Part shown: one piece after another, positions 22,330 through 45,385 of the stretch
Position numbering within the stretch: position 1 is the first letter of the stretch
Layout: the number at the start of each line of letters is the position of its first letter
Virus record (IMG/VR): IMGVR_UViG_3300006076_000001
Coordinates: 1-64,000 of that record
Strand: one strand, 5' to 3'
Source of the DNA: a virus
Length of the DNA stretch: 64,000 bases
The notes under the pieces: model-generated
Database searches by the model: none
What the model was told of the DNA's origin: nothing
The model's input: only the letters and a program-made list of their open reading frames with translations
Made by a program: the position numbers and the translations under genes

Positions 22330-23148
22330 TTAACTTTCTCCTTTCTGATTTTTTGCATTCTTTTTTAATTTCTCATTAAACAAATCATTAATTTCCTTAA
22401 TCCATCTTGATAAAAACTTATCTTCTGCCTCTTCTAAATATTTATTATCACCAGTTTCTTTATACTTATTAATCAACTCATTAAATTGGTATAGTTCCAT
22501 CCAATTCCAATGAAATTGTTGTAACCAAGTCCAGTACCAATGTGATTTCTCTGAATAGGTATTTGGGTCAAAATTAAAATACTTGCCTATTATAAAGTCT
22601 ATATATCCATTTAATTCTAATTCTCTAAGAGACCTATTTCTAAAAGTAGCTAAATACATTGGCTCTCTCGATGTTAAAGTTGCAATATAAGGCTCTTGAT
22701 TGGCTATGTCACCATTTGTTATAAGAAATGGTTGATTTATACCAAACTCTTTCTTTAAATCTATTATAACGGGAGTAACATTACATTTATCTTTATACTT
22801 ACAGTCAAAACAACCTTGTCTTATACAATAATAATACTTATCCTCCAATCTAAATAAAATAAAGTTTTCTTTCTTCTGTTCCTCCGTAGGAACTATTCTT
22901 TTATAAACCCTTTTATCTCTTCTATCAGCTAGATATTTACCATCATCATACTCCACAAAGTCTTCTGGTCTGTCTCCGCTACCAACCACTCTTCTAAAAG
23001 CTGGATTATCATTCTTTTCTACTTCGTATTCTTCCTCTGTCACTTTAATGTAATCTGGCAACTCTCCTAAATCTGGGTCATAATACCAATCACCATTAAT
23101 ATAAACAATAGGTAAATCATCTAATTTAAATAACGGATTTAGTGCCAT
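22330..23148 (-). CDS. Split family A DNA polymerase fragment carrying motif A
   Basis: DLKKEF...GDIANQEPYIATLTSREPMYLATF (GDIANQEPYIA at 22681-22713) aligns with PolA IRxxF...ADYSQ(I/Q)E(L/P)RIxAHLSxDxxLxxAF; supplies the only motif missing from the other three fragments. Confidence 0.72.
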   Translation of the reverse strand: MALNPLFKLDDLPIVYINGDWYYDPDLGELPDYIKVTEEEYEVEKNDNPAFRRVVGSGDRPEDFVEYDDGKYLADRRDKRVYKRIVPTEEQKKENFILFRLEDKYYYCIRQGCFDCKYKDKCNVTPVIIDLKKEFGINQPFLITNGDIANQEPYIATLTSREPMYLATFRNRSLRELELNGYIDFIIGKYFNFDPNTYSEKSHWYWTWLQQFHWNWMELYQFNELINKYKETGDNKYLEEAEDKFLSRWIKEINDLFNEKLKKNAKNQKGES

Positions 23149-23149
23149 T

Positions 23150-23989
23150 TTATTTGTCTCCTTTTATTAAGTTAGTCAAAATAGATTCTATTTCATCAAA
23201 TTTATAATAAGGTATTCTGATTAAATTAATCTTGTTTGCTTTAGCATAATTATTTTTAATTTTATCTCTTTTCTGAATGTTTTCAAGCTCCTCTTTTCCA
23301 CCAAAATTGTTATTTGGTTTAAAATGCTGTTCTCCGTCATACTCAATCAAAACATTATAATCTGGCAAATAAAAATCGAAATAATAACTTTTATTATCGA
23401 TAAGCACTTTATATTGGTGAGTATAATTAATGTTATGCCTATCTAAAAAGTGTTTTATCTTAAGTTCCCCCTTAGACAATTTACAATAAATACAACCAAA
23501 TTGTTCTTTATGTAAATGGTTTTTCACACTTTGATAAAATAGTCCGTGTTGAGGACAAATGATTGATATCTTTGTGTGTACCCCTTTATAATGCTGTCCC
23601 CACCAAATTTCATTAAATGGATAAGTGTATCTATTATTATGGATTTTGTTGGCTCTAACAATAAACTCTTGATAAGTAAGTTTTTTCTCTATATTAAGAC
23701 AATTGAGACATTGATGTCCCTCAAGATGTTTATTGATTCTTCTATTAAAAATAGCCCCACATACCTCACATTTTAATGGAACTTTATCCTTAAAAGAAGT
23801 AATATTATTAAGCCACCAATCTAAATCAAACTGGTAAGAGATGGTATCATATAGCCTGTTGTGTTTTTCCACAAAATAATAATATTTAAACTCTTTTGAA
23901 AGATACCTGATAACATTAGACCCCAATTTAAGGTCTCTTTGATTTTTAAGAAACAAAATCCAACTATTTATATCCATATCTTTAAACAT
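23150..23989 (-). CDS. Free-standing putative homing endonuclease: 2 zinc repeats + DUF559/Vsr-like PD-(D/E)xK domain
   Basis: ICPQHGLFYQ..HL..GC..C repeat; SKGE..I...YYFDFYLPDYN..IEYDGEQHF...RD..K...LIRIPY. Confidence 0.8.
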   Translation of the reverse strand: MFKDMDINSWILFLKNQRDLKLGSNVIRYLSKEFKYYYFVEKHNRLYDTISYQFDLDWWLNNITSFKDKVPLKCEVCGAIFNRRINKHLEGHQCLNCLNIEKKLTYQEFIVRANKIHNNRYTYPFNEIWWGQHYKGVHTKISIICPQHGLFYQSVKNHLHKEQFGCIYCKLSKGELKIKHFLDRHNINYTHQYKVLIDNKSYYFDFYLPDYNVLIEYDGEQHFKPNNNFGGKEELENIQKRDKIKNNYAKANKINLIRIPYYKFDEIESILTNLIKGDK

Positions 23990-23990
23990 T

Positions 23991-25814
23991 TTAACCTTTT
24001 TTTAGATTATTTATAAATTCATTAAATTTTGGATAAGGTTTAACTCTAACTGTCCCTAATTTAAATGTGTTTTTATTTTCATAATTAATTATAAATAACT
24101 TATCCATTGGTCTAGTAATAGCTGTATAGAATACAGAATAAGTGGAATCATCAAACTCAAATGATGTATCACACATATCTGTAACAAAAACAATTTTGTT
24201 TTCAAGTCCCTTATATTGATGTATAGTCGTCATTTCGATTTTATCTGAGTTCTCTTCATCATAATCTTCTATTCTCTGAACTATGTTAAACACTAATTCT
24301 TCTATGTCAGTAATACCCTCCTCTTCTATTAATTGCTTAATAAAATTAGAAAATGTTTTTAATGCTATGTTTAATTGTTTTTCTGTAAATAACGATTGTT
24401 TAAAATGTTGCTCCGCAAATGACTTTAAAAATGAGTTAAGTATAATTAAATCCTTAACCGATTTTAGGTTATGTCTTCTTGCATTTAGAATAGAAATAAA
24501 TTCATCGATTTTGTCTCTTTTTGGGTCATTAATAGATGGGTTTGCAAGTAATCTATTTTTAAATGATTCCCCTATACCAATCCAATAATCTGAAATTGAA
24601 TAGATGTATAACTTATTACCAGAAATAAGATACTGGTAAACCGAAATAAAAAAGTTGTTAATAGGGACTTCAAAAAATTTTCTTTTGTATAATGGTGTCC
24701 TAACTTTATAGGGTAAATTAGCCCTAACAAATGACGGCTCAAGGATAGTCTTAATAAAAGAAGACTTCCTAACTAAAATAACAAAATCTTTAAATTTTAG
24801 AGTTGGGTCTTGCTGTCTAAGTTCTCTAATTTGTTTAACTATAAAATTACCGACTTGAGTATCTATTTTTAAAGTAGTAATTTTAACTGCCCCTTTAGTT
24901 TCTGGTCTGTATGGAATAGCAACTAAATCATCTACCAACTCTCTATACTTATTAGAAACTTTAACTATAATCCCATCAGACCTATAATTATAAGGTAAGC
25001 TTAATTTAAAAATTTGTTTTTCTTTCCCGAAGTATTGTTCTGGGTTATCCATAGGCTCTGAATAGGCATACCTAAAAGAGTATAACTTTTGCATATTATC
25101 ATAAATTAGAATTATAGAAGCATTAGGAAACAAACTTTCTAAAATAAAATGATTTGCTTTTGATGCATCTTGTGCTTCATCGTGAAAAACATATTTAACT
25201 TGTTTATCAATCATTTCTGGTAAAAGCACCTTTTCAGAAACTAAATCATCAAAATCTAATAAATTATTCTTTTTCTTATATAACTCATACCAATTATAAA
25301 CCATTTTAAAATTTTTCTCCGTAAATGGAACAGTATCGTTAAAAAATTGCCATAATGATTTCTCATTAGGGTCAATTAAATTTGCTCTAAAAAATGATAG
25401 ATAATTAAAAAATTGTTGAGCGTATGCTGTCCCCTCTTTTTTAGTTTGATAATAGATTCCTGCTTGTGGTAAATAATCTCTAATTAATTTTGTAGATTCC
25501 CACTCTGTCAAGACAGTAACTTTTGGAAAAAGTTGTCTATATTTATTATAGACAATGGAATGAATTGTCCCTACAATTACTCCCTCAATCCCTTGTTTTT
25601 TTAATTTTCTCTTAGCCTGAGAACCCATTCTATTAGAAAAAGTAGCTAAAACAATTTGTTCTGGTTTGACACCGCTATCTATTAGTTTTTCTATTTTAGC
25701 TACTGAAGAAGTAGATTTACCAGCACCCGCTACTGCTTTTACTAAAAGAACGGATTTATCTGGCAAATCAAAATCAATGTATTTTTGTTGAAATTCATCA
25801 AATTTAATTGACAT
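23991..25814 (-). CDS. UvrD/Rep-like superfamily 1 helicase
   Basis: AVAGAGKS, GTIHS, DEAQD, NYRS, TIHQYKGLE, YTAITR. Confidence 0.92.
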   Translation of the reverse strand: MSIKFDEFQQKYIDFDLPDKSVLLVKAVAGAGKSTSSVAKIEKLIDSGVKPEQIVLATFSNRMGSQAKRKLKKQGIEGVIVGTIHSIVYNKYRQLFPKVTVLTEWESTKLIRDYLPQAGIYYQTKKEGTAYAQQFFNYLSFFRANLIDPNEKSLWQFFNDTVPFTEKNFKMVYNWYELYKKKNNLLDFDDLVSEKVLLPEMIDKQVKYVFHDEAQDASKANHFILESLFPNASIILIYDNMQKLYSFRYAYSEPMDNPEQYFGKEKQIFKLSLPYNYRSDGIIVKVSNKYRELVDDLVAIPYRPETKGAVKITTLKIDTQVGNFIVKQIRELRQQDPTLKFKDFVILVRKSSFIKTILEPSFVRANLPYKVRTPLYKRKFFEVPINNFFISVYQYLISGNKLYIYSISDYWIGIGESFKNRLLANPSINDPKRDKIDEFISILNARRHNLKSVKDLIILNSFLKSFAEQHFKQSLFTEKQLNIALKTFSNFIKQLIEEEGITDIEELVFNIVQRIEDYDEENSDKIEMTTIHQYKGLENKIVFVTDMCDTSFEFDDSTYSVFYTAITRPMDKLFIINYENKNTFKLGTVRVKPYPKFNEFINNLKKG

Positions 25815-25846
25815 AAAGACTCCTTATAAGAGGGTATAAGAGGAAA

Positions 25847-26170
25847 TTAAGCCTCTTTAAAAGCTTTGAAGACTTTATTTGTTACTGGTTTTAAATAATT
25901 TTCATAGTATTTTGGATGGTCTTTTTTAAAATTAGTTGTATCAAATCTGTTTTGAACTACTAATTCTAATTGTAATTTGTATTCATCTACTTCAAGTAGA
26001 TATTTTAATTCATCTTCTTGAATGTTTTTCTCAAAATATTCTTTTAAGAATTCATCTTTTAAAGCTTTGATTTCTTTATCTAATTCTCTTTTTTGTTCTA
26101 CTAGTTTAAGATATTTATCTATTTTAGCTTTTAATTGGTCTTTATTTTTTGTTGCTGTTAATTTTTTCAT
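25847..26170 (-). CDS. Hypothetical coiled-coil protein
   Basis: RFDTTNFKKDHPKYY motif common in phage proteins; good RBS. Confidence 0.55.
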   Translation of the reverse strand: MKKLTATKNKDQLKAKIDKYLKLVEQKRELDKEIKALKDEFLKEYFEKNIQEDELKYLLEVDEYKLQLELVVQNRFDTTNFKKDHPKYYENYLKPVTNKVFKAFKEA

Positions 26171-26237
26171 TTCCGACTCCTTTCTGACTTATTTTTCTTA
26201 TTCTTTTATAGGAAACAATTGGAAAATCTTTAATATG

Positions 26238-26966: not shown

Positions 26967-27030
26967 TTAATCTCCTTTCTCTAAAGTTTTTCTATTTATT
27001 TTTAATGTATAAAAAATGCACTCTTAATAC

Positions 27031-28461: not shown

Positions 28462-28485
28462 CTTTCTACCACCTTTTTCTGATTT

Positions 28486-28538: not shown

Positions 28539-28552
28539 CTATATTATCAATG

Positions 28553-29250: not shown

Positions 29251-30891
29251 TTAATTATAAGACTTTTTCCACTCCCATTTAAAATTACCAGAATTATAAA
29301 CTCTGATTAGTCCCATTTTATCTGTTATTTCTCTTTCTGTCATATCTTCAGAAACCCAATCCGCCATTTTTAATAATCTCTTCTTTTGAAAAAGTCTTCT
29401 ATGTTTTCTAATTAAATCTTTATTAAAATAAAAATAAGTAGGAACAGTAATATGGACGAATTTAAACCCGTTCTTACCATAAACTACATTATCTTTGATA
29501 TTATTTAAATCAATGTGGGAAAATGTAGTTACCCAATTTGGATTATATTTAGATATAAAATGCTTAAATAATTTAGAAAAGCCTCCCACGATTATAAAGT
29601 CTTGTTTATTTGCAAACTTATCTATCTCCCATCTGTCTTCTTGTTTCCAGTATTTAATTGATATTAAAGAGATTATAGTGTTATCATACTTTAATGCAAG
29701 AAATAATTTAGCTGGAGCAAATCCATCAATGTGGTTTTCATCTAAAAAATTCTTAGCGGTGTTGTAATCCACCTCTTCAACTTTACACTTTCTAGCATAG
29801 ACTCTATTTTTAACTTTACCTAACTTTTGCCTAATAAAAGATTTAACTATATTATTTTTATATAACCACCAGTCTTCCCAAATGTGTATAAGAGTTATAC
29901 CTTTATTAGCAAAGTATAATGATTTTTCTTGATGATACTTTTTAGGTTTATTAATATCGGAATGCCAAAAAATACCATTATATTCAAACCCTATGTTTAA
30001 TTCTGGAATAAACACATCGATTTCATACTTATTATCTTTGTATTTAGTAGTGTTAAAGCCTAATGATTCAATAAATTGTCTAAGCTCTTCTTCCCCTTTA
30101 GAATAATTACTAGCACATTTGGGACACCCATATCCAGATAAATGATTATCAATAATTTGTTTAAATTCTCCGTGAATAGGACAAATAATAGTAACTTCGG
30201 TATCTTTTCTTTTATTATAACTCCTATCCCACCAATTTTTACCAACAGGATAAGTGTATTTGTTATTATGAGTTCTAATAGCTCTTTCAATAAACTCTTG
30301 ATAGGATAATCGTTTGGAATCGTTTGATTTTTCTCTACCACACTCAGGACAACCCTCTCCTCTTAAATGAGCGTTCACACTCTGCATAAATTCTCCGTGA
30401 ATAGGACAGATAATGGGGACTTTCTGACTATGATTTTTGTAATTTTCTTGCCACCAGTTATTATCAAAAGGGTATTGATACCTATTATTATGAACTCTTT
30501 TTGCTTTATTAATAAAGTCTTGGTATGATAATCTATGCTTTTTAATTGAGTTTATTCTACCACACTCAGGACAACCTTTACCACTTAAATGACCTAAAAT
30601 ACTCTGTTTAAATTCTCCGTGAATAGGACAGATAATAGGTATCTTTGTATTTTTATCTTTATAATTAATAACAAACCAATCAAATGTAAATTGAGAATAA
30701 TTGTATCTATTATTATGAGTTTTTTCTAATTTTTCTCTAACCAAATAATATTGGAACTCTTTTGGCAACTTGGAAATAGTAATAGGGTTTATGGATTTAA
30801 GTTTTTCTATTGGTTGTTTGTCTAACCAATCAATCCACTTATTTATATCAGAAAGGTTATCTGTAAGTTGTTTTATTTCTGATAACTTCAT
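29251..30891 (-). CDS. Putative homing endonuclease: 3 zinc repeats + Hef-like nuclease C-terminus
   Basis: ICPIHGEF repeats; EIDVFIPELNIGFEYNGIFWHS, IWEDWW, YARKC, GGFSKLFKHF, YNSGNFKW. Confidence 0.8.
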   Translation of the reverse strand: MKLSEIKQLTDNLSDINKWIDWLDKQPIEKLKSINPITISKLPKEFQYYLVREKLEKTHNNRYNYSQFTFDWFVINYKDKNTKIPIICPIHGEFKQSILGHLSGKGCPECGRINSIKKHRLSYQDFINKAKRVHNNRYQYPFDNNWWQENYKNHSQKVPIICPIHGEFMQSVNAHLRGEGCPECGREKSNDSKRLSYQEFIERAIRTHNNKYTYPVGKNWWDRSYNKRKDTEVTIICPIHGEFKQIIDNHLSGYGCPKCASNYSKGEEELRQFIESLGFNTTKYKDNKYEIDVFIPELNIGFEYNGIFWHSDINKPKKYHQEKSLYFANKGITLIHIWEDWWLYKNNIVKSFIRQKLGKVKNRVYARKCKVEEVDYNTAKNFLDENHIDGFAPAKLFLALKYDNTIISLISIKYWKQEDRWEIDKFANKQDFIIVGGFSKLFKHFISKYNPNWVTTFSHIDLNNIKDNVVYGKNGFKFVHITVPTYFYFNKDLIRKHRRLFQKKRLLKMADWVSEDMTEREITDKMGLIRVYNSGNFKWEWKKSYN

Positions 30892-30954: not shown

Positions 30955-30981
30955 AAAAGAAGAAAATCCTCAAAGAGGATT
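30955..30981 (-). terminator. Probable intrinsic terminator after the major capsid gene
   Basis: TCCTC-TTT-GAGGA followed by TTTTCTTCTTTT on the minus strand. Confidence 0.5.
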
Positions 30982-31846
30982 AGCTTAGTTTAATAGCTGC
31001 TACTGCGTGGTCTTGTAAGAAGATTCCAATAGCTTCAAATACACTGAAACCAATAGTTCTATTTGCAGGGTTATCTGCGTTAATGCTTGTTAAGCTAATA
31101 GCTTCTACTAATCTTCCTACATATTCAGGCTCTGCTGTTACGAAAATGTAATTAGTTGGAACTGCTCTACTTACATTAACTTTAGCACCTAATACTGTTC
31201 CAACTACACCCGCTTGCACGATTTCACTCACAGTAACTGGTTCAAATAAGTCTTTTAGCACTTTTCTTAGAGTAGTTAATTGTGCTCCATTAATAAACAT
31301 ATTAACTACTTTATTTCCTCCGTGTCTTTCTACAAGGCTAAATAAGTCACTAATATGGTCTAAAGAAATTGTGTTGCTTTTTACTGGCATTACAGGGTTT
31401 GTAGCATTATTTGCTTCAACCGCTTTTTTCATCATACCAAAAATTCTTTTATCTTCTGCTAAGAAAATATCTTGTCTTGTTCTTTGTTTTACCCTGCTTT
31501 CAAGGTCGTATCTTTTTTGTTGAACTTCAGTGTATGGGATTTCAACTAAAGTTGCGATTTCAAAAGTTGGTACGAATACTCTATCTACACCTGTTAAAAT
31601 TTGTTTTACGCTTTCACCATCTTCTGCAATAACAAGAGCATTTGTATCAATATCTTTATCATAATATGGTAGTTCTCCCTTTCCAAGTGGGTCTACTACA
31701 AATGTTCTTCTACCTACAGCTTCATAATCTCTAAATTGTTTTAGCGGAGCATTCATTTCAGCCGCTAAAAGTTTTCTACCCTCTGCACTTCTTAATAGAG
31801 AAGCGATTCTAGCTTTTCTTTGTTCTGCTGTTAATGTTTTTGGCAT
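30980..31846 (-). CDS. Major capsid protein (HK97 fold)
   Basis: GRKLLA.M..PL...DY..VGRR.F.VD.L..G.LP.YDKD; EDKRIF; GTVLGAKVNVS..VP; follows the scaffold and decoration genes. Confidence 0.8.
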   Translation of the reverse strand: MPKTLTAEQRKARIASLLRSAEGRKLLAAEMNAPLKQFRDYEAVGRRTFVVDPLGKGELPYYDKDIDTNALVIAEDGESVKQILTGVDRVFVPTFEIATLVEIPYTEVQQKRYDLESRVKQRTRQDIFLAEDKRIFGMMKKAVEANNATNPVMPVKSNTISLDHISDLFSLVERHGGNKVVNMFINGAQLTTLRKVLKDLFEPVTVSEIVQAGVVGTVLGAKVNVSRAVPTNYIFVTAEPEYVGRLVEAISLTSINADNPANRTIGFSVFEAIGIFLQDHAVAAIKLS

Positions 31847-31857
31847 CTCTCAACTCC

Positions 31858-32316
31858 TTATATAAAGAATCTAATTTTTACTGTTTTGTCAGTAGCACTA
31901 TTAGCACTTCTTGCTACCGCAACCGCAACTGAATTATTAGATGGTTTATTTTTAGTTAAAAGACCTTTATTATTATCTTTACCAATGTAAAGTAGGTCTC
32001 CAGCTTTAATATCAGTTTCAACTACTTGGTCTGTTTCTGCAACACCACCACCCATTACAATAGCTAATTTACCAGTAGCTACTGATGCTTGGTTAGTTCC
32101 ATATTGAGATACTGCATCGTGAACGATGAAACCTGCATCTACATCTCCGTCTTCAGCTAATTCAACATAACCATTTTTTACAGTTGCAACTCTACCTGAA
32201 ACCAAACTTCTTAGATAATCAGATTGTAAATCTGTATTTAAATCACCAGTTAATTTAGCTGGGTTAAGTTCATTGCTTCCGTCAATTGCCCCAAATATAT
32301 ATGCTAACTTTAACAT
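31858..32316 (-). CDS. Capsid decoration/cement protein
   Basis: ATGKLAI..GGG..ETD, IKAGDLLY...GLLT pattern; located between scaffold and MCP. Confidence 0.65.
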   Translation of the reverse strand: MLKLAYIFGAIDGSNELNPAKLTGDLNTDLQSDYLRSLVSGRVATVKNGYVELAEDGDVDAGFIVHDAVSQYGTNQASVATGKLAIVMGGGVAETDQVVETDIKAGDLLYIGKDNNKGLLTKNKPSNNSVAVAVARSANSATDKTVKIRFFI

Positions 32317-33056
32317 TATTTACCTCCTCCTATGAAATCGAATAATCCAGTTACACCACTTGTAGGCATTTTTTTATTAACTACTTTTTTAGCAACTGCT
32401 GGTTTTCTTTTAGTTGCTTTTGGTTTTTTTGATGCTGTAACTGCTGGTTGAGCTTCTTCATCTTCTTGGTCGTCTTCTTCGTCACCCTCTTCTTCAACCA
32501 TTACATCATCACCATTGCCAAATAAATCTTCTGCGTCCTCGTGGTCTCCCTCAAAGTCTTCTGGAAGTTCTCCGTGACCCTCATCTACATCTGCTACACC
32601 ATCATTATCTTGGTCGTCTTCATCTGCATCTTCAACCATTACATCATCATTTTCATCATCTGCTGGTTGAGTTTCTTCATCACCACCTAATTCTTGAAGC
32701 ACATCATCAACTGTAACCTCTTCCCCGTCATCTTCTGCATCTTCTTCTGAAGTTTTACATTTAGCAATTGCTGATTTTAGTAAATCAACTTTTGTAGCAA
32801 GGATTGCTGTATCTTCAAGTAAATCTGCTGTTCCTTTATCTAAACTTGATAAAGCTTCAACTGTAGCAACTTTGTCTTTCACATTTGCATAAAGTCTTTG
32901 TAAGTCTGTAGCCATTTTATCTAATTCAGCTGAAATTTTTTTGTGGTCTTTTGCCACTTTTGCCACTGCTAACACTCTATCTAATTTTTTATCCATAGCT
33001 GTTAAAGCTTTTTGAGCTTTAGCCACTGTCCTTTTGGCAATCAATGGTTTTGGCAT
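32316..33056 (-). CDS. Putative prohead scaffold protein
   Basis: Helical N-terminus, very acidic middle, basic C-terminus; upstream of MCP. Confidence 0.6.
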   Translation of the reverse strand: MPKPLIAKRTVAKAQKALTAMDKKLDRVLAVAKVAKDHKKISAELDKMATDLQRLYANVKDKVATVEALSSLDKGTADLLEDTAILATKVDLLKSAIAKCKTSEEDAEDDGEEVTVDDVLQELGGDEETQPADDENDDVMVEDADEDDQDNDGVADVDEGHGELPEDFEGDHEDAEDLFGNGDDVMVEEEGDEEDDQEDEEAQPAVTASKKPKATKRKPAVAKKVVNKKMPTSGVTGLFDFIGGGK

Positions 33057-33156: not shown

Positions 33157-33771
33157 TCAGAGAGGGTTTATGTCTATTAACTCTCTCTTAAACCTACTTT
33201 TATCTGGTAAAACCAAAATTAATGTGTCTTTTCCTTTCTCTAAGGATTGTAATTTAGGTAATAATTTTATAAACTCATCATAAGAATTAATAATTATTTC
33301 TTTTGTAATAGGCTTGGTTTGTTGATGTGTTTCTTCTTTATCTATATCAGAAGATATGTCTTCTTGTGTTTTTTCTTTGTCTTCCTTGCATTCTGTAGCA
33401 TTATTAGCTATATTAGTAGCTGGATTATCTTTATGTGGCTCTTCTTGATTTTCTTTAAACCCATTTTCTAATAATTGCCACTTCATAATCTCCAAATGAT
33501 AAGTGTATGGATTTAAAGATGATGTAGCGGTGTAACTACCCCATTTATCATACTCCACATCAAATTTAAAAGTGATATACGGATAGCCAACTTGGTTAAA
33601 CACTTTTTGTAATTCAATAATTCTAACCATTTGTAAAGCTAAAGGTTGATGTAAAAATCTATCCATTATATTCACGATTTCATCGTGCACCGAAAAATTA
33701 TTAATAAATAAGTCCTGATGTAAATTTAACATAACCTCTTTCATTGTTTTATCTAACTTAATCAATGGCAT
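33157..33771 (-). CDS. Split family A DNA polymerase fragment carrying motif C
   Basis: NNFSVHDEIV (VHDE at 33679-33690), then FKFDVEY..WG resembling the PolA C-terminal 'LxVDxxxGxxW'; own RBS (AAGGAG); adjacent to the motif B fragment. Confidence 0.78.
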   Translation of the reverse strand: MPLIKLDKTMKEVMLNLHQDLFINNFSVHDEIVNIMDRFLHQPLALQMVRIIELQKVFNQVGYPYITFKFDVEYDKWGSYTATSSLNPYTYHLEIMKWQLLENGFKENQEEPHKDNPATNIANNATECKEDKEKTQEDISSDIDKEETHQQTKPITKEIIINSYDEFIKLLPKLQSLEKGKDTLILVLPDKSRFKRELIDINPL

Positions 33772-33818: not shown

Positions 33819-34649
33819 TTAAAAAATCTTTTCTAAGTTCCATTTTTCTATAAAATCGACTGGGAATGATACCAATCTATCTAATTCTAAAATTACTTGT
33901 TCTCCGTCATAAACAATAAATTTATGTGAGCCATCTGGTAAAGCATCTAACTCTTTTTCTAACTGCTCTTTGTCTATCTTATCAAATTTATCTTTAGATA
34001 GACCTATTATTCTTGTGTATGGTTTATAGGTATGTTTTAAGTCCCCAAACATTCTATTTAGTCTATTTTTTTCAATCCACTTATTTATAGCCGTAATGAT
34101 GAGAATCAATTGGATAGCTGATGCACTCTGAATTGGAAAGTTCATCGCTAATCTCTCAGCTTGGGATTTAAGAGACCAATATTTCTTTCTAAGTTTTGGG
34201 TCGGCTTTTTCCTCTGGAGTAATTTTTCTTGTAGCCATAGGTAAATATCTTTTTGAGCCAAAAATGTTATCTGTGTACCCCTCAGTTTTTACTCTTTCTT
34301 TTTGAAATTTATGTAATACTTTAAGTCTTGATAGATTAGAATAAAATCTATTAATAATTTCATTTGCTTCCTCTTTTGATATACCTACTTTTTGAGAGAC
34401 TGTGTATTCAGTTCCACCATATAATAAAGCTAACCCGACTGTTTTAGCAATAGCCCTCATTTCATTTTTGAATTTATGATATGCCTCTTTATTACCAGTT
34501 GCTTCATACTCCCTAACCAATTTATCAAACTCTTCTCCATAAATGGATAAAGCATTGGCACTATGGAAGTCTCCTATATAAGTTTTTGGAGTATCATCTT
34601 TATAATCTTTTAATTCCTCAAAAATCTTACTTAACTTAGCTTTATCCAT
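33819..34649 (-). CDS. Split family A DNA polymerase fragment carrying the fingers/motif B
   Basis: GDFHSANA, RAIAKTVGLALLYGG, GISKEEA, GYTDNIFGSKRYL, AERLAMNFPIQSASA. Confidence 0.9.
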   Translation of the reverse strand: MDKAKLSKIFEELKDYKDDTPKTYIGDFHSANALSIYGEEFDKLVREYEATGNKEAYHKFKNEMRAIAKTVGLALLYGGTEYTVSQKVGISKEEANEIINRFYSNLSRLKVLHKFQKERVKTEGYTDNIFGSKRYLPMATRKITPEEKADPKLRKKYWSLKSQAERLAMNFPIQSASAIQLILIITAINKWIEKNRLNRMFGDLKHTYKPYTRIIGLSKDKFDKIDKEQLEKELDALPDGSHKFIVYDGEQVILELDRLVSFPVDFIEKWNLEKIF

Positions 34650-35039
34650 TATTTGCTCCTTTTACTCCTACATTTGTAATTTTATTTATCTCCCACATTT
34701 TATTTTCCGAATGAAAAGTAAATACATAGTTAATGTCTCTATCAAAGAAATATTGTTTATCTCTATCACAAACTGGTATTTTTTCTGGATTTAGATTTAA
34801 GAAAGAATACAAAGTGTAAATGTTAAGTGGGGTTATTTTTAACCCTCTTGTATCTTCATTAAATGAGACCTCAAAATCTAAATGACTTTTATCATACCCT
34901 AAATCTAAACATACAGATAATAAATCAGAGTGTATTTGATGTATTAAAAAATTAGTATAAATGGCACATTCATACTTATTTAACACTTTCTGAATCTCTA
35001 ACCTTAACTGAAATTTAGTTTTATCCATTATTTGCTCCT
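34641..35039. repeat. 20-bp direct repeat (34641-34660 and 35020-35039) bracketing a 128-aa ORF
   Basis: TTTATCCATTATTTGCTCCT twice; on the minus strand this is RBS + start + overlapping stop (AGGAGCAAATAATGGATAAA). Confidence 0.85.
34642..35028 (-). CDS. Hypothetical protein
   Basis: ORF with RBS, translationally coupled on both sides. Confidence 0.6.
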   Translation of the reverse strand: MDKTKFQLRLEIQKVLNKYECAIYTNFLIHQIHSDLLSVCLDLGYDKSHLDFEVSFNEDTRGLKITPLNIYTLYSFLNLNPEKIPVCDRDKQYFFDRDINYVFTFHSENKMWEINKITNVGVKGANNG

Positions 35040-36352
35040 ATTTCTGATTTCACTAAATCAATAATTGTTTTCTTTATTTCCTCATCAGTCTTATAATATG
35101 GTATTCTAATTAATTTAATTTTGTTATCTTTTGCAAAAGTATCTTTAATTTTATCTCTTTGTTTAATTTTTTCAAATCCTATTTTTCCACCCCAATTATC
35201 AACTGGCTCAAAATGTTGTTTTCCGTCATACTCAATAAAGGTGTTATAATCTGGAAGATAGAAATCAAAATAATAATTTGAATCATTAATTTTAACTCTG
35301 TATTGATGAATATAATTAACACCTAATTCATCTAAAATTGATTGAATAAATAACTCTCCTTTTGAAGTATTACATTTAGGACAGCCGTGATTGTTTAAAT
35401 GATTGTCTATCCTTTGATAAAACAATTCGTGTTGAGGACAAACAATTGGGATTTTTTGTTTATTATTTTGATAATTACTCTGCCACCAATCCAATGATGG
35501 ATAGGTATATCTATCTCCGTGAGTTTGGATAGCACTCTTAATAAAGTCTTGATATGATAATCTATGATTGTTTTCCAGCTTTTCTCTACCACATTTGAGA
35601 CAACCTCTACCCTGTAAATGACTTTCTACACTTTGATAAAATAAGCCGTGAATGGGACAGATAATAGGTATTTGGGTAGAGTTATTTTTGTAATTTTCTT
35701 GCCACCAATTAGCATCAATTGGGTAGATATAAAAATCATTATGGATTTTAGTGGCTTTATTAATAAACTCTTCATAAGATAATCGTTTAAAATCTTCTGA
35801 TTTCTTTCTCCCACATTTGGGACAACCTCTACCCTGTAAATGTTTAGCTATTTTTTGTTTAAATTCTCCGTGAATAGAACAAACAATTGGAATATAAGTT
35901 GATTGTAAAGTTTTGTAGTTTTCTTGCCACCAATTTTCATCAAAAGGATAGATGTATTTATTATTGTGAATCTTATTTGTTCTATCTATAAACTCTTTAT
36001 AAGACATTTTTAAAGTGTTTTTACCACATTTAGGACAGCCATATAATTGATGGTTAGTAACACTTTGATAAAATAAGCCGTGAGTAGGACAAACAATTGG
36101 GACTTTAGTGTTTTTATCTTTATAATTGGAAATAAACCAATCCAATGTAAATTGAGAATAGTTGTATCTATTTTTATGAACTTTTCTAAATTTCTCTAAA
36201 ATCAAATGGTATTGAAACTCTTTTGGTAATTTAGAAATGGTTGATGATTTTATTGATTTTAAATCATTAAAAGAGAGGTTTTGGAGAAGTCCTCTCCACT
36301 TATCTAAATTAGATAAGTTGTCTGTAAGTTGTTTAATTTCTTTCAAATTCAT
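35021..36352 (-). CDS. Putative homing endonuclease: 4 zinc repeats + DUF559/Vsr-like domain
   Basis: Four CPxHG..Q....H..GCxxC repeats; SKGE, YYFDFYLPDYN, IEYDGKQHF. Confidence 0.8.
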   Translation of the reverse strand: MNLKEIKQLTDNLSNLDKWRGLLQNLSFNDLKSIKSSTISKLPKEFQYHLILEKFRKVHKNRYNYSQFTLDWFISNYKDKNTKVPIVCPTHGLFYQSVTNHQLYGCPKCGKNTLKMSYKEFIDRTNKIHNNKYIYPFDENWWQENYKTLQSTYIPIVCSIHGEFKQKIAKHLQGRGCPKCGRKKSEDFKRLSYEEFINKATKIHNDFYIYPIDANWWQENYKNNSTQIPIICPIHGLFYQSVESHLQGRGCLKCGREKLENNHRLSYQDFIKSAIQTHGDRYTYPSLDWWQSNYQNNKQKIPIVCPQHELFYQRIDNHLNNHGCPKCNTSKGELFIQSILDELGVNYIHQYRVKINDSNYYFDFYLPDYNTFIEYDGKQHFEPVDNWGGKIGFEKIKQRDKIKDTFAKDNKIKLIRIPYYKTDEEIKKTIIDLVKSEIGANNG

Positions 36353-36362: not shown

Positions 36363-37439
36363 TTAATCAAAGAGGTCATCTACATCTACTGCTTTTTTAT
36401 TTCCAGTGCTTCTTTCGAAAGAATAATCAGTTACTGTATTAGTAAATGGGTTTGTATCTCTAACTTTCATTGATGATGAATCTTCTGCTTCAAATCTATC
36501 ATCATATCTTTTGTAAGGGTTTTCTGTGTAAGAACTATAAGGGTTATTTGAAATACCTATCTCTCTAAGTCTTTTATTAGCTAAAAATCTTGTATATTTT
36601 TCTATGATTGCATCAGAGAAACCTACAATTGGAGCAAGAATATCTTTACTAAATTGTTCTTCTAATTCTACTCCTTTTCTCATTTCTTCAATAACCATTT
36701 CCTCATCAAAGAAATCTGGGTATATTGCTCTTATCTCTTTAATTAAGTTTCTATATAGGATTAGATGTGAAACTTCGTCTCTATTGATTAAGTAAATCAT
36801 ATCTGCGGTAGACCTCATTAGTCCTTTCTCAGCAAGAATGTAAAAGAACTTAAATCCATTATAAAAATAAAGTCCCTCTAAAATATAATCACCAATAATA
36901 GCTCTAGCAAAAGTTCTATCAGTAGGGTTATCTGCGAAATCCTGATAAATTTGAGCTATATATCCATTTCTTTCTTTAAGTAATTCGTGAGTTCTCCAAA
37001 AGTCATAGATTTGTTTCTTCTCCTCTGGAGTAGGTATTACAGTCTCAATACAAGTAGAATAAGCCTGAGAATGTATGTCTTCTTGAAAAGCTTGGAAAAC
37101 TAATAAAGATGTTACATCTGGAGCTGTGATGTATGAAGCAAACTGAAATGGATTGATTGTTTGAATTGAATCTAAAAACACTAAAAATGACAGAATACCA
37201 TTATATCCTCTTTGAACTTCTGGTAATAAGTTAGGATATTGTCTAGCATCTTCATAGAACTCTATATCCTCTGGAAACCAAATGTCCTTTCTCATTTTAG
37301 TTCTTAAATCTTGATACCATTTTTTATTTGCATATTTACCAAAGTTATGAGTAGCCAATCCAGTTGTATTAGCACCAATAATATCATTTTTAAATGAATC
37401 TCCCTCTGGATTCCATAGTCTTCTTTTTTTAATCCTCAT
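36363..37439 (-). CDS. nrdB: Ribonucleotide reductase class Ia beta subunit (own RBS and start, but in frame with the upstream endonuclease)
   Basis: MRIKKRRLWNPEGD; WFPEDI, FLDSIQ, QEDIHSQAYS, LEGLYFYNGF, INRDEVSH; AAGGAG upstream of ATG 37439. Confidence 0.92.
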   Translation of the reverse strand: MRIKKRRLWNPEGDSFKNDIIGANTTGLATHNFGKYANKKWYQDLRTKMRKDIWFPEDIEFYEDARQYPNLLPEVQRGYNGILSFLVFLDSIQTINPFQFASYITAPDVTSLLVFQAFQEDIHSQAYSTCIETVIPTPEEKKQIYDFWRTHELLKERNGYIAQIYQDFADNPTDRTFARAIIGDYILEGLYFYNGFKFFYILAEKGLMRSTADMIYLINRDEVSHLILYRNLIKEIRAIYPDFFDEEMVIEEMRKGVELEEQFSKDILAPIVGFSDAIIEKYTRFLANKRLREIGISNNPYSSYTENPYKRYDDRFEAEDSSSMKVRDTNPFTNTVTDYSFERSTGNKKAVDVDDLFD

Positions 37440-38543
37440 AGCTCTATCTCCTTTCATCTTAATTAAATTTTTAATAGTGTGTTCCACTTCTTCATCAGTT
37501 TTATAATATGGTATTCTAACCAATTTAATTTGGTTGTTTTTTGCAAAATCATTTTTAATTTTATCCCTCTGTTTTACCTTTTCAAACCCTACCCTACCAC
37601 CCCAACCCTTAATTGGTTTAAAGTGCTGTTCTCCGTCATACTCAATAAAAATGTTATAGTCTGGAAGATAAAAGTCAAAATAATAATTTGAATCATTAAT
37701 TTTAACTCTATATTGATAGATATAATTAACATCTAAATCGTCTAAAATTGATTTTATTTTGAGTTCTCCCTTAGACGATTTACAAACAGGACAGCCGTGA
37801 TTGTTTAAATGATTATTAACTGATTGATAAAATAGACCGTGAATAGGACAAATAATTGGGACTTTGGTGTTATCTTTTCCTTTATAATTTTCTCGCCACC
37901 AGTTATTATCAAAAGGGTACTGATAGTAACTATTATGGATTTTAGTAGCTTTATCAATAAACCCTTTATAAGACAATTTTTGATTATCAGTTGAACTCTT
38001 TTTTCCACACTTAGGACAGCCGTGATTATTTAAATGGTCGCCTACTCTCTGATAAAACAAACTATGAATAGGGCAAATAATAGGGGCTTTGGTATGTCTG
38101 TTTTTATAATTTTTATTCCACCAATTCTCATTAAATGGATACTGATATCTACCATTATGAATCTGAATAGCTTTTCTAATAAAATCTTGATAGGATAATT
38201 TTTTATTTCCAATACATTTAGAACAATTTTGCCCTCTCAAATGTCTATCTATCCTTTGATAAAACAATCCGTGTTGAGGACAAATGATTGGAACTTTTTG
38301 TTTGTTATTTTGATAATTATCTATAAACCAATTTAAGGTAAATTTAGAATAATCATATCTATTTCCGTGAATCTTTCTAAACTTCTCTTTAACCAAATAA
38401 TATTGGAACTCTTTTGGCAACTTGGAGATGGTTGTTGGTTTTATTAGTTTTAATTCCTCAAGAGAGGAATTTTTAATAAACCCTTTCCATTTGTATAAAC
38501 TTTTGAAGTTGTCTGTAAGTTGTTTAATTTCTTTCAAATTCAC
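37440..38543 (-). CDS. Putative homing endonuclease (3 zinc repeats + DUF559/Vsr-like domain) with no stop codon, reading into nrdB
   Basis: First 368 codons of ORF 36363-38543; close paralog of 35021-36352. Confidence 0.8.
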
Positions 38544-39018: not shown

Positions 39019-39059
39019 TATTTATGCCTTGTTTTTATAAGGTTATTTAGATTTTATGA

Positions 39060-40557: not shown

Positions 40558-40570
40558 TTTTCTTCTCCTT

Positions 40571-41534: not shown

Positions 41535-42015
41535 CTGGTTTAGATAAGAACTGGTCTAAAGTAATAATCATATTATCTTTATAATAAAGGATTGGAGAAA
41601 AGTCTTTATTTAAAGTATTAGGTAGGATACAAAATGGATTAACTAAGTTATATTTAACTATAACTACCCAATAAGGTTTGCCAGAAGTTTTATTATCCAA
41701 TTTAGCTTGTTCTATCCATTTATCCCATTGAGTAATTTTTTGCTCTAAAAATGATTTAAAAGATGGTGGGTTTCCGTAAAATTTACACTCTATATTAAAT
41801 TTAAAGTTTTTTGGAGTAACTATGTCTCCAACAACTTTTGCATCGTCCGCTACCATCATAGCAACTCTGGCATTTTTACCACCAAATCTAGACCCACTTC
41901 CTAAATTTCTAAGAAACCCTTTTTTAACTTTAAGATAAGAAGCAAACCTATCAGAAAGAAGATTTGCTATCTTTCTTTCAAAATTATCCCCCTTAGCTTT
42001 AGAATTAATTGCCAT
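41497..42015 (-). CDS. Holliday junction resolvase-like PD-(D/E)xK nuclease
   Basis: NSKAKG..FER.IA, R..GSG, GDI, IECK, W.EQA. Confidence 0.8.
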   Translation of the reverse strand: MAINSKAKGDNFERKIANLLSDRFASYLKVKKGFLRNLGSGSRFGGKNARVAMMVADDAKVVGDIVTPKNFKFNIECKFYGNPPSFKSFLEQKITQWDKWIEQAKLDNKTSGKPYWVVIVKYNLVNPFCILPNTLNKDFSPILYYKDNMIITLDQFLSKPDDFYFIKGESNE

Positions 42016-42016
42016 T

Positions 42017-42628
42017 TTATAACTCCATTTGAATTATATTTTGACCTGAAGCCATTATTTCATTTATAGCTGATGAGTCTAAGATTTTTTGTTTTAATCT
42101 GATTGATGACTCTAATCTCATCAAATAATCGTTTTGCTTATCAAGGAACTTGACAAGCTCTTTTATTGAGTTATAAACTCTTTCTATCCTCTTAAATTGA
42201 TTAGACAAAGGAAGAGTAATGTAATTAACCTCTCTTTCTCTTTCTGCATTTGAATTGGTTAAATGATACAGAGTTTCATCAACCAATAATTCCTGTTGAG
42301 TAGTAGATAATGTTATTTTAGCATCATTGTAAAGTTTATTTACCTCTGGCATAATATAAACAGCATTTTTAGTCAAAATGTCATTCAATTTATAAATGGC
42401 TTTATGGATTAATGCTAAAGCATCTAATTGAGGTAGATTTTTCTCTACTAATTCAGAAGCTATTTTATAAGGAATGTAAGGTGAATCTACAAATTCAAGG
42501 ACTTGTTTTCTAAGTTTAGTTTGGTATTCGCTAAGTTCTTTTTCTACTTCTTTAAATTCCTCTACCATTGGCTCTATTTCTTTTCTCTTATCTCTTCTAA
42601 AAGAAAAAATTGTTTTAACTTTTTGCAT
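42017..42628 (-). CDS. Hypothetical coiled-coil protein
   Basis: Helical ORF with RBS. Confidence 0.5.
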   Translation of the reverse strand: MQKVKTIFSFRRDKRKEIEPMVEEFKEVEKELSEYQTKLRKQVLEFVDSPYIPYKIASELVEKNLPQLDALALIHKAIYKLNDILTKNAVYIMPEVNKLYNDAKITLSTTQQELLVDETLYHLTNSNAEREREVNYITLPLSNQFKRIERVYNSIKELVKFLDKQNDYLMRLESSIRLKQKILDSSAINEIMASGQNIIQMEL

Positions 42629-42911
42629 CTTCTGACTCCTTTCCTGCTATGTTTTCAACATTGTTTGCATAGTATATTTCAAAGTCCTCTTTAGAAACTT
42701 CCATAATATTTATTATAACAATATTATCAAAATCTACTTTCAATGATTTTGCTATATCTTCAACCAGAGTTTTTCTATTTACAAATAGTCCGTTACCAGT
42801 AATTATGGAGATTTCTCCGTATTGTTTATCAAATGAACTCATTCCTAAAGGACTAACAAACTCTCTTGTATAAACAAAAGAAATTATAAAATATCTTTTA
42901 TTCACTTTCAT
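42615..42911 (-). CDS. Hypothetical protein
   Basis: Coupled ORF. Confidence 0.5.
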   Translation of the reverse strand: MKVNKRYFIISFVYTREFVSPLGMSSFDKQYGEISIITGNGLFVNRKTLVEDIAKSLKVDFDNIVIINIMEVSKEDFEIYYANNVENIAGKESEDAKS

Positions 42912-43278
42912 CTGATTTACCTTTTTCTTTTTTATAATAAGCTGTAATAAGTTTAGCTAAATTAGAAATCATTTCACCTTTATGATACAAATAATCACTA
43001 TAGTTAATTACCCCGTCAATTACAAATGATTGATAATGGTTTATTCTGTTTATAGTTTGCAATGTTTGAATAACTGGCATTTTATCAGAAGCAATTGTGT
43101 ATCTGATTTCAAGTCTGCCTCCTTTTGATGAGTAGTCGTCTCTAAGTGGATTTTTATAATCAGATGCAACAATTACTTCCACTGGTTTTAAATTAGCTTC
43201 TTCAATGTCTTTTAGATATTTATCTTTGTATTGACTTGGTAGTTTATCTAAAATCTCTTTAATAACTAAACTAAGCAT
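42898..43278 (-). CDS. Hypothetical protein
   Basis: ORF with AAGGAG RBS. Confidence 0.55.
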   Translation of the reverse strand: MLSLVIKEILDKLPSQYKDKYLKDIEEANLKPVEVIVASDYKNPLRDDYSSKGGRLEIRYTIASDKMPVIQTLQTINRINHYQSFVIDGVINYSDYLYHKGEMISNLAKLITAYYKKEKGKSDESE

Positions 43279-43299
43279 CTCCGACTCCTTTCTGATTTA

Positions 43300-43650
43300 T
43301 TATTTTAAATAAGTATCCACAACAGGTGTGTATCTTTTGTAACTAGGTGAAGAAAATAATAACTCTAATTGAGTTGTTTTGTTCTCCTCACTTTTAATTT
43401 TAATATCATTAATAATTTGCCATCTGCTTTGCTCTGCCTCATCAGGATTACCATAAACAAATTCAATTTCTTCTACTCTTGTATCTGATAATTTCACTGT
43501 AACTGAATAAACATAACTGACTTCTTTTTGTTTCTTAAAAAATCCCCCTGTAACTTCTACCCTTTCTTCCACTGGAGAAATCATTAAAATATTATTATAA
43601 TCTCCAACCAATGTGCCATCTGGCAATAAAATTGCTTTATCCATTTTCAA
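43300..43650 (-). CDS. Hypothetical protein
   Basis: ORF with AGGAGG RBS. Confidence 0.55.
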   Translation of the reverse strand: MKMDKAILLPDGTLVGDYNNILMISPVEERVEVTGGFFKKQKEVSYVYSVTVKLSDTRVEEIEFVYGNPDEAEQSRWQIINDIKIKSEENKTTQLELLFSSPSYKRYTPVVDTYLK

Positions 43651-43666
43651 ACCTCCTAATATAAGA

Positions 43667-45385
43667 TTAATTCTTGCTTTTATATTCCCAAGAAATTAAA
43701 GTGTTAATTATTCTTTGTTCTGCTTCTCTCTCTAACTCTTCCATTTGTGGGAGTTTAGTAACGACTTTTTTTAATTTAACCAATTTTGGTGATTCTGACG
43801 GCATACCCTGAGTATTTAAAGAGTGGGTAATACCATTACCTAATTTTAATTTACAATTTGTTTTAGTTTTAAGTTTATTAAAAGTTGCATATCTTGGGTG
43901 TCCTGACCCTTTTTCATTTGCAAATCTTAGGGTATCAGTACCGATGTATCTCAAATTAATATTAACAAAAAAATGGTTTCTGTCATCAATGTAAAGGTTA
44001 TATAAAATACCATAATAAATTGCTATATCTTTAACTAAAGACCTATATAAAGAAATAATACTTAATAAAGTTTGAATATCTTGTTTAGTATCCTCTGGTA
44101 AGAACTCTGCTTCCATAACAGCTGATTTAAATTTAGATAAAATGGAGTCATCCATATTGAACTGCTCTTTAATTGCACCACTTTTTAATTTATCTACTTT
44201 TCTAACCAATCCAAAATAGTCCTCTATATACTTATAGAAGTTATTTTCATCTCCTTTCCATAAAGGTTTTAGTATATAATTAACTATTATCACAGACACC
44301 ATAGGACTGACTACTGATATCTCCTCTTCATAACCATACTTTTTAAGTGTATTAATAAATTTTTGCTCTAAAAGTATCATTCTAATGTTAATTGTTTTGA
44401 TTGTCCTAACCAATCTGTCTTTATCGATTAAAAGCCCGTATTGTAAAGATGAAATTACATAATACAAAGCTTGATGAACTATTTTAGTTGTAGTAGGTTG
44501 CTCTTTATATGGGTTTCTACCATAAATGTCGTCTATCACAAATGCTTTAAACAAACCATAGGTATTAGTAGCATCTGACCCAGCATATGTTAAAGCATTT
44601 GAAACTGGCAACCTGTTAAAAGAAATGTGATTTTTAGTGGGTAAATTTAAAATTTCATTAATTTCAAGCATCTTTCTATTAAGTACATACTCTGATAATG
44701 CTTTAAGCCCATGACCTATATTCATAGGCATAAACTCTTGATTATTCATCAATTTTGAAACCAACATTGTATCTGTTATTGGGATATTACCTATTTTAAT
44801 TCCCCAGTTAGATAAATGAGCTAAGTCAAATTGTGCGTTATGTAAAACAATATGGAAATTGTCTATCAACCATTGTAAAAATGGTTTGACTTGTGTCTCC
44901 CAATCTAAATTTTTTATGCCATCTGTTTCTGTATGTTTAACTGGTAAAATAAACCCCTCTTTATCAGAAATAGCTAACGGAACTGAAACGATTTCTGTAT
45001 CTGGAACAAACCTACCTTTAATCAATTTACCTTTAGTAGATAACCCCGAAGTTTCTAAATCCAATGCAATAACAGGTTTATTGAAGCCGTCATAAGTAAC
45101 TGCTTTCTCTTTAATATAACTTTTGAATTTATCTAAATCTTTATCTACAACTTCTACATAATCAGCAATTGGAGTAAATAATTTATCCTTATCAATCTCA
45201 GTTGTAATAATTTTAAAAGAACATTCCTTTACCCAGTCGTGCATTTTAGCAAAATTATGAGGTAAAAATACCTCTGACGGCTCTAATGGAGAAAAGTCTT
45301 TTTCTAATTTACTATCAATTAATTCCTGATAATTTGGGATTTCAACAGGAACTTTATCATAAACAAAAAAATCTTTATACTTCAA
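43667..45385 (-). CDS. Split family A DNA polymerase fragment: 3'-5' exonuclease + thumb + start of palm
   Basis: ExoI ALDLETSGL, ExoII HNAQFDL, DTML, GLKALS, ExoIII YAGSDA; GTDTLRFA (TxTGRLSS equivalent) and LNTQGMP (NLQNIP equivalent); stops before motif A. Confidence 0.9.
   Translation of the reverse strand: MKYKDFFVYDKVPVEIPNYQELIDSKLEKDFSPLEPSEVFLPHNFAKMHDWVKECSFKIITTEIDKDKLFTPIADYVEVVDKDLDKFKSYIKEKAVTYDGFNKPVIALDLETSGLSTKGKLIKGRFVPDTEIVSVPLAISDKEGFILPVKHTETDGIKNLDWETQVKPFLQWLIDNFHIVLHNAQFDLAHLSNWGIKIGNIPITDTMLVSKLMNNQEFMPMNIGHGLKALSEYVLNRKMLEINEILNLPTKNHISFNRLPVSNALTYAGSDATNTYGLFKAFVIDDIYGRNPYKEQPTTTKIVHQALYYVISSLQYGLLIDKDRLVRTIKTINIRMILLEQKFINTLKKYGYEEEISVVSPMVSVIIVNYILKPLWKGDENNFYKYIEDYFGLVRKVDKLKSGAIKEQFNMDDSILSKFKSAVMEAEFLPEDTKQDIQTLLSIISLYRSLVKDIAIYYGILYNLYIDDRNHFFVNINLRYIGTDTLRFANEKGSGHPRYATFNKLKTKTNCKLKLGNGITHSLNTQGMPSESPKLVKLKKVVTKLPQMEELEREAEQRIINTLISWEYKSKN

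Follow-up and report, generated by a model that had tools for sequence, protein, structure and literature searches.

A family A DNA polymerase spread over four dispersed genes in an uncultured phage, a candidate non-covalent four-subunit enzyme

Single-subunit family A DNA polymerases (PolAs) serve as a textbook model of how polymerases work, and many laboratory enzymes are based on them. The literature that we searched presents a contiguous palm-fingers-thumb domain as a requirement of these enzymes and reports no split other than that of the exonuclease from the polymerase domain. PolA lies in two adjacent genes in some marine phages, and the two-gene exonuclease|polymerase split of T7-like cyanophages (S-SBP1-like) was presented as the first case of a split PolA (Czernecki et al. 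2023, NAR; PMC10201439). In other polymerase families, the two-subunit family B polymerase (PolB) of PhiKZ consists of DNAP-N and DNAP-C (Basu et al. 2026 preprint; PMC13648687), and group 2.2 jumbo phages have a split minimal Pol III alpha with distantly located genes (Iyer et al. 2021; PMC7824862). "Fractured genes" are those in which a split intein has a free-standing homing endonuclease gene between its halves (Dassa et al. 2009; PMC2677866). The locus described here lies in the first 64 kb of the 93,786-bp IMG/VR virus record IMGVR_UViG_3300006076_000001 (this 64,000-nucleotide [nt] stretch is the window). One full set of family A polymerase motifs is spread there over four minus-strand open reading frames (ORFs), pieces 1 to 4, spanning 23 kb. 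The searched literature, with incomplete coverage, describes no PolA whose catalytic domain is divided among three or more dispersed, non-collinear genes. We consider it likely, from the sequence comparisons below, that the only DNA polymerase of this phage is a functional, non-covalently assembled four-subunit PolA.

One set of polymerase motifs in four genes

Along the minus strand the pieces run in the order 1, 3, 4, 2, with gaps of 9 kb, 47 bp, and 10 kb (Table 1). This order and these positions had been given by a sequence-only reading of the window, and they agree with the ORF list and translations. The same reading had assigned each piece its own ribosome binding site and stop; an AAGGAG-type Shine-Dalgarno sequence does lie 5 to 9 nt before each of the four start codons, and each ORF has a stop of its own. 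The polymerase domain is thus not on one polypeptide but on ORFs with separate starts and stops, 47 bp to 10 kb apart. The first of the three breaks follows the NxQ motif, the second separates the motif A helix from the DxH motif, and the third separates the post-PIQ helix from the motif C strand. Every break carries a clade-specific extension: a helix-like tail of 40 residues on piece 1; a hairpin, a four-Cys knuckle, and a helical bundle in piece 2; and the long tails of pieces 3 and 4. The four ORFs tile PolA without overlap, as had been predicted, with PF01612/phrog_17 covering piece 1, PF00476 covering piece 3, and hhalign alignments covering pieces 2 and 4.

Table 1. Coordinates in the window of the four polymerase pieces, their key motifs, and homing-endonuclease-like genes
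Feature	Position	Strand	Description
Piece 1	43667..45385	-	572 amino acids (aa), TTG start; 3'-5' exonuclease, thumb, GTDTLRF, LNTQGMP
ExoI carboxylates D109-E111 (piece 1)	45053..45061	-	Invariant in alignment A6
GTDTLRF-LNTQGMP segment (piece 1)	43799..43942	-	Equivalent to Pol I TGR...NLQNIP region; from translation
Piece 2	22330..23148	-	272 aa; N-terminal hairpin, invariant Arg52 strand, four-Cys insertion, motif A strand and helix, 100-residue helical bundle
Motif A segment, residues 140-169, with Asp147 and Glu152 (piece 2)	22642..22731	-	hhalign score 52.5
Cys108/113/116/122 cluster (piece 2)	22783..22827	-	Inserted between two palm strands
Piece 3	33819..34649	-	276 aa; fingers, GDFH through motif B to NFPIQ helix, then 75-residue clade-specific tail
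Motif B, R65-G79 (piece 3)	34413..34457	-	Aligned to Taq motif B region
Piece 4	33157..33771	-	204 aa; residues 1-85 motif C hairpin, helix, and last palm strand, then 120-residue tail
Motif C His-Asp-Glu, H29-E31 (piece 4)	33679..33687	-	Invariant in alignment A2
Homing-endonuclease-like paralogs (n = 5)	23150-23989, 29251-30891, 35021-36352, 36363-37440, 51556-53397		Replication region; phrog_559/3339; CPxCG repeats and C-terminal nuclease

The critical point was whether piece 2 is the motif A segment. Its translation reads DIANQEP. Exhaustive HMMER searching with a profile of piece 2 and four homologs yielded a family of 56 cluster representatives, nearly all of them stand-alone proteins of 236 to 315 aa. 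Among 41 aligned members (17 to 83% identity; mean column identity, 15%), the only invariant residues besides the start Met were R52, D147, Q151, E152, and E162, while C108, C113, C116, P153, and F169 were at least 90% conserved. The spacing of D147 and E152 is the D-x4-E of motif A, and residues 128 to 178 aligned to motif A of five intact PolAs in a profile-profile comparison (hhalign E = 5.4e-6). When the trimmed core (residues 125 to 180, with fusion proteins removed) was compared with a template of 26 intact PolAs, hhalign aligned it exactly at motif A (score, 52.5; E = 1.2e-8; probability, 95.6%); the reversed template scored 12 and 20 column shuffles at most 14 to 17. The proposal that 22330 to 23148 corresponds to the motif A region therefore held against its controls. 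A full-length alignment of piece 2 gave an hhalign E value of ~1e-22, a figure that we dropped because reversed and shuffled templates were similarly small (1e-17 to 1e-19), an artifact that arises in the helical C-terminal region. When MAFFT aligned the family jointly with 13 intact PolAs, the Asp of motif A was invariant and the Glu position was conserved to at least 90%. All four Cys of the inserted cluster were invariant in sub-alignments A8 to A11, and the cluster is probably a zinc knuckle. By these alignments and by the natural fusions to piece 3 described below, piece 2 is genuinely the PolA segment between the thumb and motif B.

The translation of piece 3 contains GDFH, the motif B core AKTVGLALLYGG, and NFPIQ, and it matched PF00476 at positions 199 to 326 of 381 (E = 5e-22), NCBIfam Pol I models (E = 1e-19), a custom PolA hidden Markov model (HMM) at positions 439 to 594 (E = 1e-32), and the Taq, Bst, and Klenow chains. 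Motif B residues R65, K69, Y77, and G78, in the pattern R-x3-K-x7-YG, were invariant in alignment A5. Piece 4, which begins 47 bp past the stop of piece 3, carries SVHDEIV and had no match in Pfam, PHROGs, or NCBIfam. Its first 85 residues aligned to the 26 intact PolAs from motif C through the C-terminal strand (hhalign score, 36.1; E = 4e-4), compared with scores of 13 to 18 for reversed or shuffled controls, and a second hhalign run gave an E value of 0.002. In the tails of piece 3 (33819-34043) and piece 4 (33157-33336), a helix precedes the common pattern "PDG, hydrophobic strand, turn, strand," and their mutual alignment has a weak hhalign score of 20.6 (shuffles scored 13.4 or less). 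The two tails may be docking modules that pair with each other, or they may stem from an old duplication. We also considered the piece 3 tail as a degenerate copy of the motif C hairpin and found no support for this (BLASTP E = 2.6; hhalign score, 12.7, versus shuffles up to 17).

Piece 1, read from its translation, has ExoI DLETSG, ExoII HNAQFD, and ExoIII YAGSD, followed by GTDTLRF and LNTQGMP, and ends ~40 residues past the latter (NxQ) motif, ahead of motif A. It matched PF01612 (E = 9e-14) and positions 632 to 975 of 1445 of phrog_17 ("DNA polymerase"), as well as the Klenow exonuclease domain and the start of the polymerase domain. Exonuclease residues D109, E111, D187, Y267, and D271 were invariant in the piece 1 family, and T483, D484, T485, R487, N524, Q526, and G527 were conserved. 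Eight homologs with 30 to 80% identity had the same length of ~570 aa, matched PF01612 only, and ended at the same point, with the exonuclease Asp/Glu, the TDT.R motif, and N..QG invariant. Exonuclease, thumb, and NxQ motif are continuous in piece 1, without the exonuclease|polymerase break of S-SBP1-like enzymes.

The 93.8-kb genome had a single PF00476 match, piece 3, and a single match to the piece 2 family profile. The custom PolA HMM, run against all frames of the genome, found only pieces 1 and 3 and, weakly, piece 4; piece 2 was not found. The claim that each motif occurs exactly once thus extends to the whole genome. No PolB, PolC/DnaE, protein-primed PolB, or PrimPol was found in these 93.8 kb, and so the intact replicative polymerase elsewhere that could have undone the sequence-only reading did not appear. 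Since pieces 2 and 4 are unmatched by Pfam, PHROGs, and NCBIfam, per-gene annotation would call both hypothetical, as that reading had anticipated, and phages of this clade would consequently score as lacking an intact polymerase.

Relatives, fusions, and the age of the layout

The same split recurs in relatives, with lengths retained and the pieces dispersed in distant relatives. In an ~80%-identical relative on a 94,181-bp contig, pieces 1, 2, and 4 have 571, 267, and 202 aa, and in relatives at about 30 to 45% identity the pieces are apart. Of the four metagenome contigs carrying a piece 2 gene (41 to 45% identity), all retain either the adjacency of UvrD and piece 2 or the downstream genes, and three have the piece 2 neighbors of the window, sharing the upstream order decoration protein, major head protein, 106-aa gene, UvrD, piece 2 and the same four genes downstream. 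These three lack the homing endonuclease gene that the window has between UvrD and piece 2. G002, an IMG/VR genome of 126,269 bp (CheckV completeness, 100%), has a piece 3 homolog (260 aa), a P-loop helicase, a piece 4 homolog (206 aa; E = 4e-23), a scaffold-like gene, and a decoration-like gene in succession; its piece 2 homolog lies 51 kb further on, and its piece 1 homolog lies 4 kb after piece 2. G002 also had a single PF00476 match and was negative in a PolB search. In G001, likewise from IMG/VR, DnaB is followed by piece 2, two genes, piece 1, an endonuclease, and UvrD. Since the pieces are separate in all genomes seen, in an order and with a spacing that vary between genomes, we take both misassembly and a recent accident to be excluded by this comparison. 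The layout is old and defines a clade of uncultured phages with reshuffled gene order and occasional fusion of neighboring pieces. The motif A Asp/Glu, the HDE of motif C, and the exonuclease carboxylates are invariant in divergent relatives, and by this pattern the catalytic residues are under purifying selection.

Natural fusions join the pieces in two orders. P0050 (512 aa, with variant P0078; three contigs of up to 78 kb) and P0063 (500 aa; two contigs) each have a piece 2-like half followed by PF00476 positions 192 to 324. Both represent pieces 2 and 3 in canonical order and end where piece 3 ends. The helical bundle of piece 2 also occurs within the fused P0050 protein (predicted local distance difference test [pLDDT] score there, 85 to 96) and is therefore an inserted domain of the clade rather than a product of the split. 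P0068 (390 aa) has a piece 4-like N terminus with HDE followed by a piece 2-like half, which is the permuted order of the window in fused form.

Inteins occur in relatives at one site of the piece 1 gene at which piece 1 of the window is continuous. A metagenomic piece 1 homolog of 725 aa (P0013) has a contiguous 156-residue mini-intein at GTD|TGR. At the same site, piece 1 of G002 is fractured (L094 15037-18010, ~76.4 to 79.4 kb of the genome): an N-intein closes the first ORF, the next ORF is that of a zinc-repeat homing endonuclease, and a short third ORF starts with a 15-residue C-intein ending in HN and continues with TGR...NMQG. G002 therefore has five polymerase genes, the products of two of which are probably re-ligated by trans-splicing, and GTD|TGR appears to be a recurrent intein target. 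The UvrD-like helicase of G002 also has an intein, in its P-loop (GAG|C...HN|SGKS; L094 ~18100-18580).

IMG/VR scans with alignments A1 and A11 found no relatives, and two loci taken from match lengths as possible splits between pieces 3 and 4 (L058 and L037) turned out to be intact PolAs. An unrelated IMG/VR viral contig of 91.7 kb (L028) has an ORF of only 322 aa with motifs A and C at 5686-6654, which may be another PolA with its polymerase domain apart from the exonuclease and thumb.

The proposed complex and its alternatives

In Pol I, the palm sheet is made of the strand pair around motif A, the motif C hairpin, and the C-terminal strand. The motif A Asp (Asp705 in Escherichia coli Pol I) and the motif C Asp (Asp882) bind two metals, and motif B, on the O helix, binds the incoming deoxynucleoside triphosphate (dNTP). 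In the arrangement that we propose, the four products would join non-covalently into one Klenow-like enzyme. Proofreading exonuclease, thumb, and the TGR/NxQ primer-contact motifs would all come from piece 1. Piece 2 would supply two palm strands, one with the invariant Arg and one with the motif A Asp/Glu, with the zinc knuckle between them and the helical bundle after. Piece 3 would contribute the fingers, including the dNTP-binding motif B (O) helix, and piece 4 the motif C Asp and the remaining palm strands, so that the palm sheet would be shared by pieces 2 and 4. Because the established structure of Pol I puts motifs A, B, and C together, the active site would be built from three chains, with metal-binding carboxylates on pieces 2 and 4 and the dNTP-binding helix on piece 3. 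The extra tails and modules may be docking parts that hold the complex together. We infer this physical assembly, the activity, and the docking role of the tails from the sequences.

Several observations weigh against the proposed enzyme. Piece 2 had no match in Pfam, PHROGs, NCBIfam, PDB sequence profiles, or the plain PolA HMM, and its placement depends on a profile-profile alignment of 32 to 41 columns and on the fusions. The alignment of piece 4 is weak when taken alone (hhalign probability, 13 to 34%), and the fusion of pieces 4 and 2 is known from one 2,070-bp contig. Structure prediction did not recover the palm: the single-chain AlphaFold2 (AF2) model of piece 2 (pLDDT, 45.6) was uninformative, with no palm fold seen. 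The AF2 model of the natural fusion P0050 (pLDDT, 65.8) matched PolA fingers only at residues 285 to 446 (Z, ~5; Foldseek E = 8e-4), and its N-terminal half was unmatched to PolA, again with no palm fold. A complex prediction for the four pieces (piece 1 residues 290 to 572 and piece 4 residues 1 to 100, with piece 2 as partner) gave a median of 0.72 versus 0.00 with a replaced partner (two runs), but a control with chain 1 replaced gave 0.85, so the prediction is not specific and counts neither for nor against the complex. CheckV estimated the record to be 79% complete, although direct terminal repeats are present.

It is possible that piece 2 is not a constitutive subunit but a separately regulated limiting factor that switches on the other three pieces. 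Its place last in the direction of transcription, at the border of the replication and tail modules, would suit such a role, as would its varying position relative to piece 1 between genomes. However, a promoter scan gave no signal above chance, and no above-chance promoter or terminator was found between the UvrD gene and piece 2. In G001 and G002, piece 2 sits among replication genes just upstream of piece 1; its fusion to piece 3 in other relatives is consistent with a stoichiometric subunit. We regard a switch of this kind as unlikely.

The pieces might instead be joined into one chain, by protein trans-splicing after translation or by trans-splicing introns in the RNA. Relatives do have inteins in the piece 1 gene (the P0013 mini-intein and the G002 split intein), and piece 2 is flanked by, and piece 3 lies near, homing endonuclease genes. 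The polymerase halves are not adjacent, and the copy next to piece 2 is missing from the relative L003. At the break points of the window, however, the absence of inteins claimed at the outset was borne out: none of the pieces had a Hint or intein Pfam match at an E value of ≤1, no Rfam family (intron) exceeded its threshold in the window, and the translated termini show neither a Cys/Ser N-intein start nor an HN-Cys/Ser/Thr junction. N- and C-intein blocks were thus not seen at the new termini, and the tails of pieces 3 and 4 showed no resemblance to inteins of relatives in a comparison that used only three inteins (scores of 9 to 11 versus shuffles up to 15). The extensions are moreover conserved as protein, and the helical bundle of piece 2 persists inside fused P0050. 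A single re-ligated chain is accordingly very improbable.

Decay of a broken polymerase, with a host polymerase replicating the phage, is harder still to sustain. Fragmentation and nearby homing endonucleases can look like gene decay, and pieces 2 and 4 are without a curated family match, but the catalytic residues are all invariant in relatives down to 17 to 30% identity, lengths and break points are conserved, and each piece has a strong ribosome site. The DnaB- and UvrD-like helicases and NrdB-like ORF of the phage also argue for self-sufficient replication. The notion that piece 2 is an unrelated zinc-finger protein with a chance D-x4-E, leaving a three-piece polymerase without motif A, can draw on the shortness of the stretch that aligns to PolA and on the failure of library models and PDB sequence profiles to find piece 2, but is scarcely credible given the score of that stretch (52.5 versus ≤17 in 21 controls), the correct order of the fusions to piece 3 in five contigs, invariant residues that are precisely the motif A Asp and Glu, and established Pol I enzymology, under which a PolA needs motif A to bind the catalytic metals.

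The four-subunit PolA is therefore the reading that we retain, and in a broader form it likely describes the clade as a whole. An obligate four-subunit enzyme would be a stable, ancient design, with the catalytic carboxylates and the dNTP helix on three polypeptides and with assembly by clade-specific modules (zinc knuckle, helical bundle, and paired C-terminal tails) rather than inteins. The genes would be free to move, fuse, and take up inteins, and the enzyme may be an aminoadenine replicase, given a PurZ-like gene in the genome.

Genome context and comparison with known split polymerases

The window has a G+C content of ~29%, and all ORFs of at least 110 aa are on the minus strand. Genes for a tail sheath, a major head protein, and a decoration protein mark it as DNA of a contractile-tailed phage. 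Its replication genes include a DnaB-like helicase, a UvrD-like helicase, and a RusA-like resolvase, and an NrdB-like domain was read from translation. The earlier placement of piece 2 next to the neck genes was roughly right: downstream, an endonuclease VII-like gene and a tail-protein-like gene come before the more distant tail sheath gene. The zinc-repeat homing endonuclease copy between UvrD and piece 2 is absent from the relative L003 and is therefore a later insertion. A 726-aa ORF at 36363-38543 (minus strand) combines a complete zinc-repeat endonuclease, a paralog of that at 35021-36352, with a complete ribonucleotide reductase beta subunit, uninterrupted by a stop. Scaffold-like, decoration, and major head genes at 30980-33056 lie directly downstream of pieces 3 and 4, within the replication region. 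The run of piece 3, piece 4, scaffold-like gene, and decoration-like gene was also seen in G002 (L096 2159-3289). After the major head gene, there is a terminator-like hairpin at 30965-30981.

Outside the window, at genome positions 68807-70177 (minus strand; L090:610-1980), is an adenylosuccinate-synthetase-like gene of 456 aa. Its best NCBIfam match was PurZ (E = 3e-29; 102 bits, far under the 300-bit cutoff of the model), compared with 67 bits for PurA models. The phage may have an aminoadenine (Z) genome, in which case the split polymerase would be a Z-DNA replicase. Piece 1 did not reach the cutoff of the NCBIfam model for DpoZ, the aminoadenine-specific PolA (NF038380; 20.5 bits versus a cutoff of 500), and generic PolA models scored as well.

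If the proposed enzyme is real, a natural polymerase cut three times in its catalytic domain would show where the fold tolerates breaks. Its split points and docking modules could serve the engineering of conditional or modular polymerases, and it would be a living example of a single-subunit polymerase turning multi-subunit.

Each of the known systems shares part of this arrangement. Aeromonas phage Aeh1, the precedent named in the sequence-only reading, reportedly has an NrdA that is split by mobE and functional as separate polypeptides (Friedrich et al. 2007). That case likewise leaves separate polypeptides after a gene split but involves another enzyme, with one break made by homing endonuclease insertion and adjacent, collinear halves. 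The "fractured gene" arrangement is seen exactly in piece 1 of G002, and the window is rich in homing endonuclease genes; the window differs in having no intein blocks at its own break points, and its pieces therefore cannot be re-ligated by that route. The Pol III alpha of jumbo phages is also a catalytic polymerase made as separate proteins from genes far apart, but it belongs to family C, has two pieces, and coexists with a family B polymerase instead of being the only one. The PhiKZ enzyme and the gp43A/43B split family B polymerase that T4-like Aeromonas phages are reported to encode (Petrov et al. 2006) resemble the proposed complex in forming a replicative polymerase as a stable complex of separately encoded pieces, but they are of another polymerase family and have two pieces only. 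In the S-SBP1-like PolA, family A parts are also separately encoded and predicted to re-associate without an intein. That enzyme has a single break, at the junction of the exonuclease and polymerase domains, which leaves the catalytic domain whole, and its genes sit side by side in collinear order. Here, by contrast, the exonuclease is fused to the thumb, all three breaks lie within the polymerase domain, and the genes are scattered in a non-collinear order.

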